From Escherichia phage K1-5: a stretch of 44,385 bases of DNA. Numbering within the stretch: the first letter of the stretch is position 1; each line of letters opens with the position of its first letter. The stretch lies in the sequence record NC_008152.1; one strand, 5' to 3'. Below the pieces are notes generated by a model. It searched no databases and was not told the origin of the DNA. It worked only from the letters and a program-made list of their open reading frames with translations. A program made the position numbers and the translations under genes. Shown piece after piece: positions 3,301 to 44,385 of the stretch.

Positions 3301-5928
3301 ATGCAAGGCCTACACGCTATTCAACTTCAACTTGAAGAAGAAATGTTTAACGGCGGTATCCGTCGCTTTGAAGCGGACCAACAACGCCAGATTGCATCCG
3401 GTAATGAATCAGACACGGCATGGAATCGCCGCTTATTGTCCGAGTTAATCGCGCCAATGGCTGAAGGTATTCAGGCATACAAGGAAGAGTATGAAGGTAA
3501 AAGAGGCCGTGCACCGCGTGCATTAGCTTTCATTAACTGCGTAGAAAACGAAGTGGCAGCATATATCACGATGAAAATCGTTATGGATATGCTGAACACG
3601 GATGTAACCTTGCAGGCTATAGCCATGAATGTAGCTGACCGCATTGAGGACCAAGTACGTTTTAGCAAGCTGGAAGGTCACGCCGCCAAATACTTTGAAA
3701 AAGTTAAGAAGTCACTTAAGGCAAGTAAGACTAAATCATATCGCCATGCGCACAACGTAGCGGTAGTGGCTGAGAAGTCAGTAGCTGACCGTGACGCTGA
3801 TTTCTCCCGCTGGGAGGCATGGCCTAAAGACACCTTGCTGCAAATTGGGATGACCTTGCTTGAAATCTTAGAGAATAGCGTATTCTTCAACGGGCAACCT
3901 GTCTTCCTCCGCACCTTGCGCACTAATGGCGGCAAACATGGTGTTTACTACCTACAGACTAGTGAACACGTAGGTGAGTGGATAACTGCATTCAAAGAGC
4001 ACGTAGCGCAACTGAGTCCTGCCTATGCTCCTTGCGTCATCCCTCCGCGTCCGTGGGTATCACCTTTTAACGGCGGTTTCCACACTGAGAAAGTAGCAAG
4101 CCGTATTCGTCTGGTAAAAGGAAACCGCGAACACGTCCGCAAGCTGACCAAAAAGCAAATGCCAGAGGTTTACAAGGCTGTTAACGCGTTGCAGGCGACT
4201 AAATGGCAGGTTAACAAGGAAGTTTTACAGGTTGTGGAAGACGTCATCCGTCTAGACCTAGGTTATGGTGTACCTTCCTTTAAACCACTCATTGACCGCG
4301 AGAACAAGCCAGCTAATCCAGTGCCGCTAGAATTTCAGCACCTACGGGGCCGTGAACTGAAAGAAATGCTTACGCCGGAACAATGGCAAGCCTTTATCAA
4401 CTGGAAAGGTGAATGTACTAAGCTGTACACCGCTGAAACTAAGCGCGGAAGCAAATCGGCGGCAACCGTTCGCATGGTTGGTCAGGCCCGTAAATATAGC
4501 CAGTTCGACGCAATCTACTTCGTGTATGCACTGGACAGCCGCAGCCGCGTCTACGCGCAATCTAGCACACTCTCACCGCAATCAAATGACTTGGGCAAGG
4601 CCTTGCTCCGTTTTACCGAAGGGCAGCGTCTTGATAGCGCTGAGGCGCTTAAGTGGTTTTTGGTGAACGGGGCTAATAACTGGGGTTGGGATAAGAAAAC
4701 TTTTGACGTGCGCACCGCTAACGTGCTGGATAGTGAATTTCAAGACATGTGCCGCGACATTGCAGCGGATCCGCTGACCTTCACTCAATGGGTAAATGCC
4801 GACTCCCCTTACGGCTTCCTTGCATGGTGCTTTGAATATGCGCGTTATCTGGATGCACTGGATGAAGGCACGCAAGACCAATTCATGACGCACCTCCCAG
4901 TCCATCAAGATGGTAGTTGTTCTGGTATCCAGCACTACAGTGCTATGCTACGCGATGCAGTAGGTGCGAAAGCAGTAAACCTTAAGCCCTCTGACTCTCC
5001 TCAAGATATTTATGGTGCCGTTGCGCAGGTAGTAATTCAGAAGAATTATGCATACATGAATGCAGAGGATGCGGAAACCTTCACTTCTGGCAGCGTGACT
5101 TTAACAGGTGCGGAGCTGCGTAGTATGGCTAGTGCGTGGGATATGATAGGAATCACTCGCGGCCTGACCAAAAAGCCCGTAATGACACTACCTTATGGCA
5201 GCACACGTCTAACCTGCCGTGAGTCAGTGATTGATTATATCGTTGATTTAGAAGAAAAAGAGGCCCAACGGGCTATTGCGGAAGGGCGTACCGCCAATCC
5301 TGTACACCCTTTTGATAATGACCGTAAAGACAGCCTGACACCTAGCGCAGCTTATAACTATATGACAGCTTTAATCTGGCCTTCTATTTCGGAAGTGGTT
5401 AAAGCCCCTATAGTGGCAATGAAAATGATTCGTCAGCTTGCCCGTTTCGCAGCTAAAAGGAATGAAGGCTTAGAGTATACCCTGCCTACTGGCTTCATCT
5501 TGCAACAAAAGATTATGGCTACTGATATGCTCCGCGTATCTACTTGCTTGATGGGAGAAATCAAGATGAGTCTACAGATTGAAACAGACGTAGTGGATGA
5601 AACGGCAATGATGGGCGCTGCTGCTCCTAACTTTGTGCATGGTCATGATGCCAGCCACCTTATCTTAACAGTCTGCGACCTTGTTGATAAAGGGATTACA
5701 TCTATCGCAGTTATTCATGACTCTTTTGGCACTCATGCAGGCCGTACAGCCGACCTTCGTGATAGCTTAAGGGCAGAAATGGTGAAGATGTATCAAGGCC
5801 GTAATGCACTGCAAAGCCTGCTAGATGAGCACGAAGAACGCTGGTTAGTTGATACCGGAATACAAGTACCAGAGCAAGGGGAGTTTGACCTTAACGAAAT
5901 CTTAGTTTCAGACTATTGCTTCGCATAA
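3301..5928 (+). CDS. T7-like single-subunit DNA-directed RNA polymerase
   Basis: 875 aa; [16 protein letters not shown] (motif A), IHDSFGTHA (motif C), C-terminal ...DYCFA; AGGAG RBS. Confidence 0.97.
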
Positions 5929-5936
5929 TATTAATA

Positions 5937-5966
5937 GGCCATTCCTTCGGGAGTGGCCTTTCTTTT
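5937..5966 (+). terminator. Hairpin with UUCG-type loop plus T-run just after the RNAP gene
   Basis: ggccattcc-ttcg-ggagtggcc followed by tttctttt. Confidence 0.55.
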
Positions 5967-6001
5967 ACCTACTACCTGTAACATTTCATTAACATAAAAG
6001 T

Positions 6002-6017
6002 GTCTCACATGTGAGAC
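6002..6017. promoter_or_regulatory. 16-bp perfect palindrome GTCTCACATGTGAGAC (copy 1)
   Basis: Read directly; immediately upstream of promoter 6020. Confidence 0.6.
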
Positions 6018-6019
6018 TT

Positions 6020-6040
6020 ATTTACCGGACACTATAGGAT
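6020..6040 (+). promoter_or_regulatory. Phage RNAP promoter (early-type variant)
   Basis: atttaccggacactataggat; 2 nt downstream of a 16-bp palindrome. Confidence 0.6.
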
Positions 6041-6081
6041 AGCCGTCGGAGACGGGAAAGAAAGGGAAGATAAAGGATATA

Positions 6082-6140
6082 AAGGAAGTAATAGGTATTA
6101 AAGGTTATATAGGTTATCTAGGAATACCTATTACCTTCTT
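6082..6140. other. AT-rich dyad element (candidate primary replication origin)
   Basis: 12-bp inverted arms gtaataggtatt (6088..6099) and aatacctattac (6123..6134) flanking aaaggttatataggttatctagg; lies between two phage promoters after the RNAP gene. Confidence 0.4.
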
Positions 6141-6182
6141 CCTTCCTCTTATTACCACTCAGAGGAAGGGCAGACCTAGGTT

Positions 6183-6198
6183 GTCTCACATGTGAGAC
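6183..6198. promoter_or_regulatory. 16-bp palindrome GTCTCACATGTGAGAC (copy 2)
   Basis: Read directly; upstream of promoter-like 6204. Confidence 0.6.
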
Positions 6199-6203
6199 TT
6201 CGT

Positions 6204-6224
6204 ATTTACCGGACAGTATAGATA
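6204..6224 (+). promoter_or_regulatory. Phage RNAP promoter-like variant
   Basis: atttaccggacagtatagata; preceded by a second copy of the 16-bp palindrome. Confidence 0.4.
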
Positions 6225-6251
6225 AGATTAACTCACTTTGGAGATTTAACC

Positions 6252-8387: not shown

Positions 8388-8413
8388 GGCTTGTCTCACA
8401 TGTGAGACAGGCT
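8388..8413. promoter_or_regulatory. Extended hairpin around palindrome copy 3
   Basis: caggcttGTCTCACATGTGAGACaggctc; follows the primase/helicase stop. Confidence 0.6.
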
Positions 8414-12579: not shown

Positions 12580-12600
12580 ATTTACTGGACACTATAGAAG
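12580..12600 (+). promoter_or_regulatory. Phage RNAP promoter (perfect consensus)
   Basis: atttactggacactatagaag. Confidence 0.8.
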
Positions 12601-12666
12601 GAAAGCATAGGTAATCTAGGTTTATAAGGTAGTATAGGTAATTAAGTAAATATAGGAGATATAAAT

Positions 12667-31007: not shown

Positions 31008-31037
31008 AAGGCTTGTCTCACATGTGAGACAGGTCTT
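31008..31037. promoter_or_regulatory. Extended hairpin around palindrome copy 5
   Basis: aaggcttGTCTCACATGTGAGACaggtcttt; between gp15-like and gp16-like genes. Confidence 0.6.
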
Positions 31038-35413: not shown

Positions 35414-35696
35414 ACATGCAGCTACAGAGGACGAGGTTGGCATTCTGCATGGTGCTATTACCAAAATCTTCAATAAGAAAGCACAGGCAATACTGGACAC
35501 TATAGAAGAAGACCCTGATGCAGCATTACATTTAGTGTCTGGTAAGGATATTGGTGCGATGTGTAAGTGGGTTCTTGATAACGGCATTACCGCCACACCT
35601 GCTGCACAGCAGGAAGAGTCCAAGTTATCTAAGCGCCTCAAGGCTATCCGAGAGGCATCCAGTGGTAAGATAATTCAATTCACTAAGGAGGATTGA
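35397..35696 (+). CDS. Terminase small subunit (gp18-like)
   Basis: Track ORF 35352; likely GTG 35397 start after GGAGGGAG; directly upstream of the large subunit; assignment by synteny. Confidence 0.55.
   Translation: MSVHNKHAATEDEVGILHGAITKIFNKKAQAILDTIEEDPDAALHLVSGKDIGAMCKWVLDNGITATPAAQQEESKLSKRLKAIREASSGKIIQFTKED
35488..35508 (+). promoter_or_regulatory. Near-consensus phage promoter embedded in the small terminase gene
   Basis: caatactggacactatagaag; 18 of 21 positions match, all mismatches at the 5' edge. Confidence 0.45.
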
Positions 35697-37594
35697 TGGC
35701 TAAGGCAAGAGAATCACAAGCGGAGGCTCTTGCCAGATGGGAGATGCTACAGGAGTTACAGCAGACCTTTCCTTACACCGCGGAAGGTTTGCTTCTCTTT
35801 GCAGATACAGTTATTCATAACTTAATTGCAGGCAACCCTCATCTGATTCGTATGCAGGCGGATATCTTGAAGTTCCTATTTTACGGACACAAGTACCGCC
35901 TCATCGAAGCGCCTCGTGGTATCGCTAAGACAACACTATCAGCAATCTATACGGTATTCCGTATTATTCATGAACCGCATAAGCGTATCATGGTTGTGTC
36001 CCAAAACGCCAAGCGAGCAGAGGAAATCGCAGGTTGGGTAGTTAAAATCTTCCGTGGCTTAGACTTTCTTGAGTTTATGCTGCCGGATATCTACGCTGGG
36101 GACCGTGCATCCGTTAAGGCGTTTGAGATTCATTACACCCTACGTGGTAGTGATAAGTCTCCTTCTGTATCCTGTTACTCAATCGAAGCAGGTATGCAGG
36201 GTGCTCGTGCTGATATTATTCTAGCGGATGACGTAGAGTCGATGCAGAATGCTCGTACGGCAGCGGGCCGTGCCTTGCTTGAGGAGCTGACTAAGGAGTT
36301 TGAATCTATCAACCAGTTTGGGGATATCATTTACCTTGGTACACCTCAGAACGTAAACTCTATCTACAACAACCTACCTGCTCGTGGTTACTCTGTTCGT
36401 ATCTGGACTGCGCGTTACCCTTCAGTAGAGCAAGAGCAATGTTATGGCGACTTCCTTGCACCTATGATTGTTCAAGATATGAAGGACAACCCAGCACTTC
36501 GCTCAGGGTACGGGTTGGATGGTAATAGTGGTGCACCTTGTGCCCCTGAAATGTATGATGATGAAGTCCTGATTGAGAAGGAAATCTCTCAGGGTGCTGC
36601 TAAGTTCCAGCTTCAGTTCATGCTTAACACTCGCATGATGGATGCTGACAGATACCCATTACGCCTGAACAATCTAATCTTCACCTCGTTTGGTACAGAG
36701 GAAGTCCCTGTGATGCCTACGTGGAGTAATGATTCCATAAACATCATTGGTGATGCACCTAAGTATGGTAACAAGCCTACGGATTTCATGTACAGACCTG
36801 TAGCTCGCCCATATGAATGGGGTGCTGTCTCCCGCAAGATTATGTATATTGACCCTGCGGGTGGTGGTAAGAACGGAGATGAGACGGGTGTAGCCATCGT
36901 ATTCCTGCACGGCACATTCATTTATGTGTATCAGTGCTTTGGTGTACCTGGCGGATACCGAGAGTCGTCCCTGAATCGCATTGTGCAGGCCGCAAAGCAG
37001 GCGGGTGTTAAAGAGGTATTCATTGAGAAGAACTTTGGTCATGGCGCGTTTGAGGCGGTAATTAAGCCGTACTTTGAACGAGAGTGGCCTGTAACTCTGG
37101 AAGAGGATTACGCCACCGGACAGAAAGAGTTGCGTATCATTGAGACGCTGGAGCCGCTCATGGCAGCCCATAGGCTTATCTTCAATGCAGAGATGGTGAA
37201 GTCAGACTTTGAGTCGGTACAGCACTATCCGCTTGAACTACGCATGTCCTACAGTCTTTTCAATCAAATGTCGAACATAACGATTGAGAAGAACAGCCTC
37301 CGGCACGATGACCGCCTAGACGCCCTGTATGGCGCTATACGGCAATTAACTTCTCAGATAGACTATGACGAGGTTACACGGATTAATCGCCTCAGAGCGC
37401 AGGAGATGCGCGATTACATCCATGCTATGAACACACCTCATCTACGCAGGGCAATGCTATATGGAGATTACGGTACTGAGCGAAGAGTGACCAACACTTC
37501 CGTAGCGATGCAGCAGCGAGTTTACGGGCAGAACTACCGAAATAAATCGGCAAGCAGAAATACACTTTCTGCAAGGATTTCAAGGACTTATTAA
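35696..37594 (+). CDS. Terminase large subunit (gp19-like)
   Basis: 632 aa; AAGGAGG RBS; deviant Walker A RGIAKTT, Walker B IILADDVE, RNaseH-like nuclease segment IDPAGGGKNGDETGVAI. Confidence 0.9.
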   Translation: MAKARESQAEALARWEMLQELQQTFPYTAEGLLLFADTVIHNLIAGNPHLIRMQADILKFLFYGHKYRLIEAPRGIAKTTLSAIYTVFRIIHEPHKRIMVVSQNAKRAEEIAGWVVKIFRGLDFLEFMLPDIYAGDRASVKAFEIHYTLRGSDKSPSVSCYSIEAGMQGARADIILADDVESMQNARTAAGRALLEELTKEFESINQFGDIIYLGTPQNVNSIYNNLPARGYSVRIWTARYPSVEQEQCYGDFLAPMIVQDMKDNPALRSGYGLDGNSGAPCAPEMYDDEVLIEKEISQGAAKFQLQFMLNTRMMDADRYPLRLNNLIFTSFGTEEVPVMPTWSNDSINIIGDAPKYGNKPTDFMYRPVARPYEWGAVSRKIMYIDPAGGGKNGDETGVAIVFLHGTFIYVYQCFGVPGGYRESSLNRIVQAAKQAGVKEVFIEKNFGHGAFEAVIKPYFEREWPVTLEEDYATGQKELRIIETLEPLMAAHRLIFNAEMVKSDFESVQHYPLELRMSYSLFNQMSNITIEKNSLRHDDRLDALYGAIRQLTSQIDYDEVTRINRLRAQEMRDYIHAMNTPHLRRAMLYGDYGTERRVTNTSVAMQQRVYGQNYRNKSASRNTLSARISRTY

Positions 37595-37613
37595 TTACTG
37601 GACACTATAGAAG
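37593..37613 (+). promoter_or_regulatory. Phage RNAP promoter just after the terminase large subunit
   Basis: aattactggacactatagaag; overlaps terminase stop; followed by an ATAGGT-rich block. Confidence 0.7.
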
Positions 37614-37755
37614 GAAGGCCCAGATAATAAGAGAAAATAATAGGTAATATATATATAGGTTAACCTAGGTTATATAGGTATGCCTTAGTATGGGTGTACT
37701 CCTGTACACCCTATTCCTTACTACCTTACTATATTTACATAATAGGAGAGAGACA

Positions 37756-38034
37756 ATGGCTAATGATTATAGTAGTCAACCATTAACAGGTAAGTCTAAG
37801 AGAAAGCAGGTACAACCTGTAAGTGAAGAACTAATGCTTCCGGTGCTCAAAAAAGAGGAAGTTAGTAAGAAAAGCAATGTTATTAATGATGCCACCAAAT
37901 CAGGTAAACAGAAAGGGGCCATGGTGTGCCTTGAAGTGAAAGGTGGTGTATTGAAGATTGCTATCGCGGTTGATGGCAAAGAAGATTCAGAGTGGAAGTT
38001 AGTAACAGTGGAACCAACTGTTAACCCAGTTTAA
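37756..38034 (+). CDS. Hypothetical protein (92 aa), paralogue A
   Basis: Track ORF 37690; ATG 37756 after AGGAGAG; shares KKEE..SK...SGKQKGAMV.LE...IAVA motif with the next ORF. Confidence 0.55.
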   Translation: MANDYSSQPLTGKSKRKQVQPVSEELMLPVLKKEEVSKKSNVINDATKSGKQKGAMVCLEVKGGVLKIAIAVDGKEDSEWKLVTVEPTVNPV

Positions 38035-38052: not shown

Positions 38053-38343
38053 ATGGCTAAATATGGTACTACAGGTTCTGTTACTGGTCAGGCTTTTCGA
38101 GTAAAAGCAGTACAAACTATTGCAACGGCAATCCCGATGCCTGTTGTTAAAGAAGAAGACCTTAAGAGTAAAGACCACCCTATCAACATCAAACATTTAT
38201 CAGGTAAACAGAAAGGTGCAATGGTTGCTCTTGAGAAAGGTGACACAACCTTACATATTGCTGTTGCACGTGGTAGTGAACCCACAGACCCTTGGGATGT
38301 AACTGGTATGGAAAAGGACGCTGTTACTCCAGCAGGGGTATAA
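38053..38343 (+). CDS. Hypothetical protein (96 aa), paralogue B
   Basis: TAAGGAGG RBS; SGKQKGAMVALEKGDTTLHIAVA. Confidence 0.6.
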   Translation: MAKYGTTGSVTGQAFRVKAVQTIATAIPMPVVKEEDLKSKDHPINIKHLSGKQKGAMVALEKGDTTLHIAVARGSEPTDPWDVTGMEKDAVTPAGV

Positions 38344-39264: not shown

Positions 39265-39285
39265 ATTTACTGGACACTATAGAAG
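39265..39285 (+). promoter_or_regulatory. Phage RNAP promoter (perfect consensus) upstream of tailspike cassette
   Basis: atttactggacactatagaag. Confidence 0.8.
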
Positions 39286-43914: not shown

Positions 43915-43975
43915 CAGGTTAATATCTTAGTATAAACAAGGGCAGACTTAGGTTTGTCCTTAGTGTATTCCAAAG
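43915..43975. repeat. Three CTTAG(T/G) repeats immediately left of the right terminal repeat
   Basis: tcttagtat, acttaggtt, ccttagtgt at about 43925, 43946, 43958. Confidence 0.5.
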
Positions 43976-43983
43976 GAGGTAAC

Positions 43984-44112
43984 ATGCTGAAAGATGGTTG
44001 GGTTTCATATGACCCTACAGACCCTAAGAATTGGCTACAGGTTATCGCTATAGCTTGTGCAGGTAGCCTATTGGCTGCCCTGATGTATTCATTATGGATG
44101 TACACAAAGTAA
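43984..44112 (+). CDS. Small membrane protein (42 aa) at right genome end
   Basis: AAAGGAGG RBS 5 nt before ATG; VIAIACAGSLLAALMYSLWM is a TM helix; ends about 40 bp before the terminal repeat. Confidence 0.4.
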   Translation: MLKDGWVSYDPTDPKNWLQVIAIACAGSLLAALMYSLWMYTK

Positions 44113-44151
44113 CCAAAGTCAAAATTTTGATGTAGGCGTGTGTCAGCTCTC

Positions 44152-44385
44152 TCGCCCTCGCCCTCGCCGGGTTGTCCCCATAGGGTGGCCTGAGGGAATC
44201 CGTCTTCGACGGGCAGGGCTGATGTACTCCTTGTCTAGTACAAGGGAGGCGGAGGGAACGCCTAGGGAGGCCTAGGAATGGCTTAGTGGTGGACAAGGTG
44301 ATTACCTTAGTGAAGCCTCTTAGTGCATTCCTGAGGCCATTCAGGGCGTTTATGAGGGATTGACAGGGTGTGAGGGCGTGGGCTA
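44152..44385. repeat. Right direct terminal repeat (234 bp)
   Basis: Exact copy of 1..234 read by eye; window ends exactly at the repeat end. Confidence 0.95.

Follow-up and report, generated by a model that had tools for sequence, protein, structure and literature searches.

A predicted late promoter and a conserved leader with a periodic AGGTA array behind the terminase gene of Escherichia phage K1-5

Escherichia phage K1-5 (Vectrevirus, Molineuxvirinae, SP6 group) has a complete genome of 44,385 bp (NC_008152.1), which is the window analyzed here, with all genes on the + strand. The region that follows its large terminase gene, at 37.6 kb, probably consists of a late promoter and a conserved 146-nucleotide (nt) leader launching the mRNA for genes 41–45. 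This assignment is based on sequence comparison, namely on the match of the promoter to its consensus, the order of the modules behind it, their conservation across genera, purifying selection on a short-repeat array, and the conservation of a hairpin structure. The AT-rich block that an initial annotation had proposed as a candidate replication origin forms the first two-thirds of this leader.

We propose that the promoter, situated on the terminase stop codon, would start an mRNA encoding two small paralogous proteins, an M15 endolysin, and a spanin. The leader is built from a purine-rich array of four AGGTA(nn)CCT units (4–8 in relatives) about 10 nt apart, followed by a GC-rich hairpin (approximately −12 to −13 kcal/mol), a pyrimidine tract of about 30 nt, and the Shine–Dalgarno (SD) sequence with the gp41 ATG. 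The array may keep the promoter-proximal DNA easily opened and the RNA unstructured. Replication priming, if any, would be a by-product or a second use of the same promoter–leader architecture. The modules are listed below.

37593–37615, + strand: promoter for the phage single-subunit RNA polymerase (RNAP), positions −17 to +6, AATTACTGGACACTATAGAAGGA, with the predicted +1 at G 37610; assigned from consensus match, matrix score, and conservation.
37616–37639, + strand: purine-rich spacer, GGCCC then AGATAATAAGAGAAAATA; mean identity 0.70.
37640–37691, + strand: array of ~10-nt AGGTA(nn)CCT units, with AGG at 37642, 37657, 37667, and 37676, closed by a degenerate unit, CCTTAGTA.
37692–37711, + strand: hairpin GGGTGTAC-TCCT-GTACACCC, 8 bp, −13.1 kcal/mol, reported by the terminator scan.
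37712–37743, + strand: pyrimidine-rich tract (TATTCCTTACTACCTTACTATATTTACA...), 73% pyrimidine over 30 nt, with a period-8 CCTTACTA repeat.
37744–37758, + strand: ribosome-binding site (RBS) AGGAG at 37744–37748 and the gp41 ATG at 37756–37758, assigned from anti-SD pairing and from the start in annotated homologues.

The promoter on the terminase stop codon

The terminase stop codon (TAA, 37592–37594) and the promoter share 2 nt. The promoter AATTACTGGACACTATAGAAGGA matches the genome's own consensus, ATTTACTGGACACTATAGAAGRR, at 22 of 23 positions, the single mismatch being at −16. The 13-nt core of this consensus, GACACTATAGAAG, occurs 13 times with at most two mismatches, always on the + strand, compared with 1.4 occurrences expected, and a count of 13 was reached in none of 100 shuffles. 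In a leave-one-out weight matrix, the 37593 site scores 32.8 bits and ranks fifth among 14 sites, while the top non-promoter position on either strand scores 11.5 bits. The near-consensus promoter that the initial annotation placed over the terminase stop is thus borne out.

The start position, G 37610, was set by analogy with the SP6 promoter. The promoter is co-oriented with the downstream genes, recurs behind the terminase gene in all Molineuxvirinae relatives that were inspected, and has a mean pairwise identity of 0.89 among 11 phages. As a sequence element it is ordinary, and its homologue is already annotated in Proteus phage Pm5460 (38781–38803). As part of the promoter-and-leader arrangement as a whole, 37593–37615 probably serves the phage's single-subunit RNAP as a strong late promoter, and it is expected to fire at 37610.

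A sigma-70-like match, TGGACA-18-GATAAT (37599–37628), was also considered and set aside. Such matches occur at chance level (4 found, 5.6 expected), and the hexamers are altered in K1E and SP6.

The AGGTA array

The block at 37614–37690 has a GC content of 30%, compared with 45% for the genome, just 0.4% of 77-nt windows being this GC-poor. In a nearest-neighbour stability scan, 37621–37680 ranks first genome-wide among the least stable 40- and 60-bp duplexes (z = 4.1–4.2). ATAGGT is present in three copies inside a 40-nt stretch, out of 20 on the + strand in 44 kb. The initial annotation had described about 75 bp of ATAGGT-rich, TATATA-containing DNA before the next gene; the AT-richness is indeed exceptional, but the block stops short of that gene.

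Rather than being a generic AT-rich block, this DNA is organized. In the leader, GAAGGAAGGCCC and an A-rich spacer precede a tandem array of AGGTA(nn)CCT units. Tandem Repeats Finder (TRF) detects a period-10 repeat at 37622–37649, and a perfect palindrome, TAGGTTAACCTA, lies inside the array at 37656–37667. On the non-template strand, purines make up 64% of the array. Among 10 phages, 31 of the 40 intervals between successive AGG(T/A) motifs are 9–11 nt, and four others, each spanning a degenerate unit, are 19–20 nt.

The 3′ part of the array shows a mean identity of 0.79–0.87 in the 11 phages, whereas third codon positions reach 0.64 in the terminase gene and 0.45 in gp41. Because this identity exceeds that of the synonymous positions of the flanking genes, the array is under purifying selection. 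It appears to be a sequence-specific cis element rather than mere AT-rich filler.

The TATATA run belongs to a variable (TA)n microsatellite at approximately 37647–37656, whose length differs among near-identical phages; the spacing between units 1 and 2 is 9, 11, or 15 nt. This run is the least conserved stretch of the region, with a mean pairwise identity of 0.29. The recognition triplet of the SP6 primase, which we take to be 5′-GCA-3′, is by inspection not conserved in the array, and it was treated as uninformative.

The hairpin, the pyrimidine tract, and the start of gp41

The hairpin has a mean pairwise identity of 0.81 in the same 11 phages. At least five distinct stems occur among relatives (GGGTGTAC, GGGAGGTA, GGGTACTC, GG..GGGTAC, and GG..GGGAC), each with a folding energy between −11 and −13.5 kcal/mol. 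Since these differing stem sequences keep a similar folding energy, the hairpin shows compensatory evolution. One stem variant (record L072) contains a G-U pair that is workable only in the + strand RNA.

It could be argued that the hairpin and the pyrimidine tract form a terminator or attenuator, which would end terminase read-through, stop most transcripts at about 100 nt, and thereby limit the lysis genes. The terminator scan reports the hairpin at 37692–37711, it is labelled a putative terminator in phages KAW1A4500 and R4596, and it is conserved, with a U/C-rich tail in all relatives. However, the tail UAUUCCUU in K1-5 has no U run, unlike the terminator after the capsid gene, in which an 11-bp stem is followed by UCUUUUUG. 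Moreover, a promoter placed right before an efficient terminator would be pointless, and hairpins soon after promoters are common in the K1-5 genome (2022, 6028, 22860, and 39273). We therefore regard a dedicated terminator as quite improbable. Because the hairpin tail has no U run, a stabilizer or a weak attenuator is favoured, and we suggest that the hairpin forms in the transcript in one of these roles rather than as a full terminator. Apart from the putative terminator label, the leader modules carry no annotation in the records inspected.

An RNase III site, which would be an irregular duplex of about 20 bp, was rejected as an identity for the hairpin. The stem has 8 bp here; in relatives it reaches 10 bp, interrupted by an internal loop, and no extension of it is conserved.

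The pyrimidine tract following the hairpin is retained in 10 relatives, where its pyrimidine content ranges from 60 to 87%. It leads into the RBS, whose anti-SD pairing amounts to −7.3 kcal/mol at 37741–37749. The initial annotation had placed the next gene at 37690, whereas the actual start is the ATG at 37756; SP6 and Pm5460, among others, lack the ATG at 37690. The intergenic region between terminase and gp41 accordingly measures 161 nt, and the leader (37610–37755) 146 nt. A hidden small open reading frame (ORF) was likewise discarded: the ATG at 37690, although in frame with gp41, is not conserved, and neither is the mini-ORF ATGCCTTAG.

Conservation across relatives

The order promoter, array, hairpin, pyrimidine (CT) tract, and RBS recurs after the terminase gene in K1E, CrRp3, EEc4, and NTNC80A (Vectrevirus), SP6 and UAB78 (Zindervirus), Pm5460 (Acadevirus), phD2B (Tuodvirus), and POP72 (Axomammavirus). 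It is also found in the Klebsiella phages IME184 and F5M1D and in several metagenomic contigs. The arrangement therefore spans at least five named Molineuxvirinae genera. In these relatives the leaders are 134–170 nt long and contain 4–8 array units; phD2B has a different, weak hairpin in the equivalent place.

The base composition of the leader is not maintained in the same way. A GC content of 0.29–0.35 is seen only in Vectrevirus-type leaders, and the homologous block has values of 0.45 in SP6, 0.40 in Pm5460, 0.44 in POP72 and phD2B, and 0.42 in F5M1D. With genome averages of 0.47 for SP6 and 0.40 for Pm5460, these two blocks are near average for their genomes. Despite the change in GC content, the promoter, the AGGTA motif with its phasing, the hairpin, and the CT tract are kept. 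The promoters of Pm5460 and the SP6 group share with K1-5 the position on the terminase stop, the promoter family, the array, the hairpin, and the CT tract; the Pm5460 record differs in that the promoter alone is annotated.

At a greater distance, Pseudomonas phage Ulitu01 (Colwellvirinae; record L057, 2541–2582) has a period-9/10 AGTAGC array and a CT-rich tract after its terminase gene. Compared with K1-5, the architecture between the terminase and the next gene is the same and the array motif is different.

On a local scale, 801 bp around the 37.6-kb site are 96–99% identical to about 29 Vectrevirus records, and this locus also has recognizable kinship with Salmonella, Klebsiella, Proteus, Citrobacter, Pectobacterium, and Lelliottia phages. 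The leader architecture is conserved yet has been missed, or labelled as a terminator, in current annotations, which matters for engineering at the terminase/lysis junction.

Related arrays elsewhere in the genome

Three arrays of the AGGTA kind, each directly behind a phage promoter, account for the three windows of the K1-5 genome with the lowest GC content and duplex stability. They are located after the terminase gene (37.6 kb), after the DNA polymerase region (12.6 kb), and after the RNAP gene (6.1 kb). In the stability ranking, 37621–37680 is first, the window at 12607 second, and that at 6066 third, each beginning 11–30 nt after a phage promoter start. The two sister modules are as follows.

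5925–6240: post-RNAP module, with an intrinsic-terminator hairpin, a palindrome, a promoter (6020–6042), a hairpin CCGTCGGAGACGG, an AGGWA array (6057–6125), and a CT tract.
12580–12666: post-DNA polymerase module, with a promoter and then an AGGTA array running straight into the RBS of a phrog_7450 gene; it holds the genome's lowest-GC 77-nt window.

Further along, the post-RNAP module has a long-range stem of 16 bp (predicted) and, at 6204–6226, a second promoter, which is weak (21.4 bits). The module is kept in SP6 and Pm5460, and its place in the genome is syntenic with that of the T7 primary origin. The post-DNA polymerase module is present in SP6 and absent from Pm5460, and its leader RNA is, if anything, less structured than expected by chance (z = +1.31). 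Across the SP6 and Pm5460 genomes, no AGGWA clusters are stronger than those in the post-RNAP and post-terminase leaders, and the architectures of both leaders are conserved.

Two further repeat families were observed. Arrays of CTTAG(G/T), with a spacing of about 10–13 nt, lie in and beside the terminal repeats (131–726 and 43926–44319). They are analogous to the CCTAAAG arrays of T7, and their motif is akin to that of the internal AGGTA/CCTAGG arrays. The palindrome (T)GTCTCACATGTGAGAC(A) occurs four times, at 6002–6017, 6183–6198, 8392–8409, and 31014–31031, and two of these copies flank the post-RNAP promoter module. It has counterparts in the same places in SP6 (TGTCCAACGTGTTGGACA), Pm5460 (TGTCCAACACTGTTGGACA), and Ulitu01 (GTCTCACAGTGTGAGAC).

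One conceivable role of the array behind the terminase gene is to offer a series of binding sites, all facing the same side of the DNA helix or carried by the RNA, to a phage or host protein belonging to a system shared with the CTTAG(G/T) arrays; concatemer processing or packaging, genome entry, and nucleoid organization are examples of roles that such a system might have. A protein-read array is suggested by the phasing of about 10 nt, which persists in 10 phages despite divergent inter-unit bases, by the partial dyad symmetry of the units (AGG...CCT, including TAGGTTAACCTA and TAGGTATACCTA), and by the kinship with the CTTAG(G/T) arrays at the genome ends. The AGTAGC array of Ulitu01, with the same period and place, is what would be expected if the motif co-evolves with its reader protein, and conservation of the motif above the synonymous-site level points in the same direction. 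Conversely, there is no candidate protein, and the spacing between units 1 and 2 changes with (TA)n among close relatives, which argues against strict phasing. A constant period can also be produced by tandem duplication alone. We consider binding sites an unlikely explanation on balance.

The AGGTA arrays behind the terminase and RNAP genes may constitute a conserved, motif-specific cis element of the SP6 group, either marking origins or being read by a factor shared with the CTTAG arrays; we put this forward as a rather doubtful idea. If true, the AGGTA element would correspond, in the SP6 group, to the repeated motifs of unexplained role that T7 carries at its origins and genome ends. The periodic leader and the post-RNAP module, located at the T7 phiOR and primary-origin positions, are a modest, testable lead.

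Points against the promoter-and-leader assignment

Several results weigh against the late promoter and leader as a sufficient account of the site. A simple ribosome-loading role for the array is not supported, because its anti-SD pairing is weak. When the units were considered as SD decoys, pairing amounted to only −3.1 to −3.7 kcal/mol, a level attained by 20% of random 9-mers, and the decoy idea was rejected; the real RBS is far stronger. The predicted RNA fold of the whole leader is no more stable than that of shuffled sequence (z = 0.19). RNAalifold, applied to 11 diverse leaders, supports the hairpin alone and no other conserved fold, and a search of the window against Rfam 15 at gathering and permissive thresholds gave no family match, the best sub-threshold hits being at chance (E > 1). 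The capsid gene, the most highly expressed late gene (promoter 22860), has no array. Finally, the ~10-nt periodicity and the related terminal CTTAG(G/T) arrays hint at a role at the DNA level, and no candidate for a factor that reads the array emerged.

Locus setting and downstream genes

The genome carries direct terminal repeats of 234 bp each (1–234 = 44152–44385). The genes on either side of the leader are listed here.

35693–37594, + strand: terminase large subunit gene, from the ORF list, with stop TAA 37592–37594; Pfam PF22530 (Terminase-T7_RNaseH-like), E = 1.6e-35, and so annotated in many relatives.
37756–38034, + strand: gp41, the first gene of the transcription unit; phrog_2725.
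38053–38343, + strand: gp42, a paralogue of gp41; phrog_2725.

The large terminase gene of K1-5 is intact, unlike that of K1E (record L003, 638–1171) and Lelliottia phage phD2B (record L010, 914–1462), where it is split by a homing-endonuclease gene. A 7-bp hairpin, GCAGAAATACACTTTCTGC, is present at 37554–37572, within the 3′ end of the terminase gene and just 5′ of the promoter; by eye, it is partially retained in relatives (AGAAAT..ATTTCT).

The gp41 and gp42 proteins share 37% identity and are conserved across the subfamily. Neither has a match in Pfam or PDB, and the phrog_2725 label "acetyl-CoA acetyltransferase", used for them in many records, is evidently spurious. They are followed by the M15 endolysin (Pfam Peptidase_M15_3) and then the spanin; besides phrog_2725, the genes of this transcription unit gave matches to phrog_894 and phrog_8971. 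The tailspike genes lie further on, behind their own promoter at 39273.

Comparison with T7 and the question of a replication origin

In T7, the origins each require a T7 promoter; phi1.1A/B are the primary origins, and phiOR and phi6.5 are examples of secondary ones (PMC8373140). The phiOR promoter (39229) is located 99 nt past the stop of gene 19 (terminase), and an AT-rich leader of 160 nt separates it from gene 19.5. Combined with the concatemer junction, the phiOR origin acts as a plasmid packaging sequence. When the T7 genome was subjected to the stability scan used for K1-5, its four least stable 60-bp windows (record L094: 417–476, 5931–5990, 18561–18620, and 39248–39307) were found to follow phiOL, phi1.1B, phi6.5, and phiOR, beginning 8–19 nt after the promoter starts.

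The initial annotation had proposed that the K1-5 site mirrors the T7 right-end secondary origin. This is correct insofar as the site is the first promoter after the terminase gene, precedes a small ORF, and has an unstable leader. The distance from the genome end does not fit: 6.5 kb lie between position 37610 and the right terminal repeat (44152–44385), and 6.8 kb between the site and the right end, with the lysis and tailspike genes on that stretch. The positional analogy with phiOR is nonetheless sound, and by a stability criterion calibrated on T7, the block is the top origin-like site in the genome.

If the site were a secondary origin of the T7 type, transcripts from 37610 would stay annealed within the purine-rich, readily melting array and be extended by the phage DNA polymerase, like those at phi1.1A/B, phiOR, and phi6.5 of T7. 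The sister arrays at 6.0 and 12.6 kb would then be the primary or other origins, and such a function would be compatible with a role as promoter and leader. The phage-RNAP promoter that T7 origins require (PMC8373140) is present, and the block ranks first by the scan that places the phiOL, phi1.1B, phi6.5, and phiOR leaders on top in T7; all three of the most unstable K1-5 windows (37621, 12607, and 6066) follow phage promoters. The purine content of the array on its non-template strand agrees with this idea, and in SP6 and Pm5460 the strongest AGGWA clusters occupy positions matching the T7 primary origin and phiOR. In addition, the strongest internal cluster of motifs related to the terminal CCTAAAG arrays of T7 lies at its primary origin, and the equivalent cluster of K1-5 lies at the 37.6-kb block.

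However, the extreme AT-richness is not conserved (0.40–0.45 GC in SP6, Pm5460, F5M1D, phD2B, and POP72), and the arrays of SP6 and Pm5460 are not among the top unstable windows of their genomes. The GC skew of K1-5 is uniformly positive, with no inflection anywhere in the genome. The T7 calibration is itself correlative, since in T7 every origin promoter doubles as a gene leader. Our literature search gave no replication data for SP6-type phages. Because the AT-richness is not conserved, the site is 6.8 kb from the end, the calibration is correlative, and the skew gives no signal, we rank the promoter-and-leader assignment above an origin, which we regard as possible but rather doubtful.

No description of AGGTA arrays or of an SP6-group replication origin was found in the literature searched. 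Phages of the SP6, K1-5, and K1E types are used for RNA polymerase tools and capsule-targeting therapy, and the accessible literature and records contain no mapped origin for them. One second-hand statement on SP6 (PMC4837284) is garbled, calling the gp14 DNA polymerase "the origin of bidirectional replication". The present analysis narrows the candidate origins to three promoter-plus-array modules, and the T7-calibrated stability scan makes the origin question directly testable.

T7 RNase III processing sites follow late promoters. The K1-5 modules resemble them in having a structured element soon after a phage promoter, and the 6.0-kb module has its predicted 16-bp stem; the 37.6-kb duplex, of only 8–10 bp, is too short for such a site.

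The T7 primary origin (phi1.1A/phi1.1B) has in common with the K1-5 site a promoter followed by AT-rich DNA made up of short repeated motifs. These are CTTAAG/CTTTAAG in T7, kin to the terminal CCTAAAG, and AGGTA/CCTAGG in K1-5, kin to the terminal CTTAG(G/T). In K1-5, however, it is the 6.0-kb module that is syntenic with the T7 primary origin, and the 37.6-kb site has a single promoter.

T7 phiOR differs from the K1-5 site in several respects. The two have no sequence homology, phiOR is 700 bp from the right end rather than 6.8 kb, and T7 alone has documented roles in origin function and packaging. A periodic repeat was sought in the phiOR leader, and TRF detects no tandem array there. In their organization, the two sites are alike: a phage-RNAP promoter lies just past the large terminase gene, an AT-rich leader of about 150–160 nt with a hairpin follows, and a small gene comes next. 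Both leaders are among the least stable DNA of their genomes. A simple stability scan that puts the origin-associated promoter leaders of T7 first is possibly useful for origin prediction in T7-like phages.

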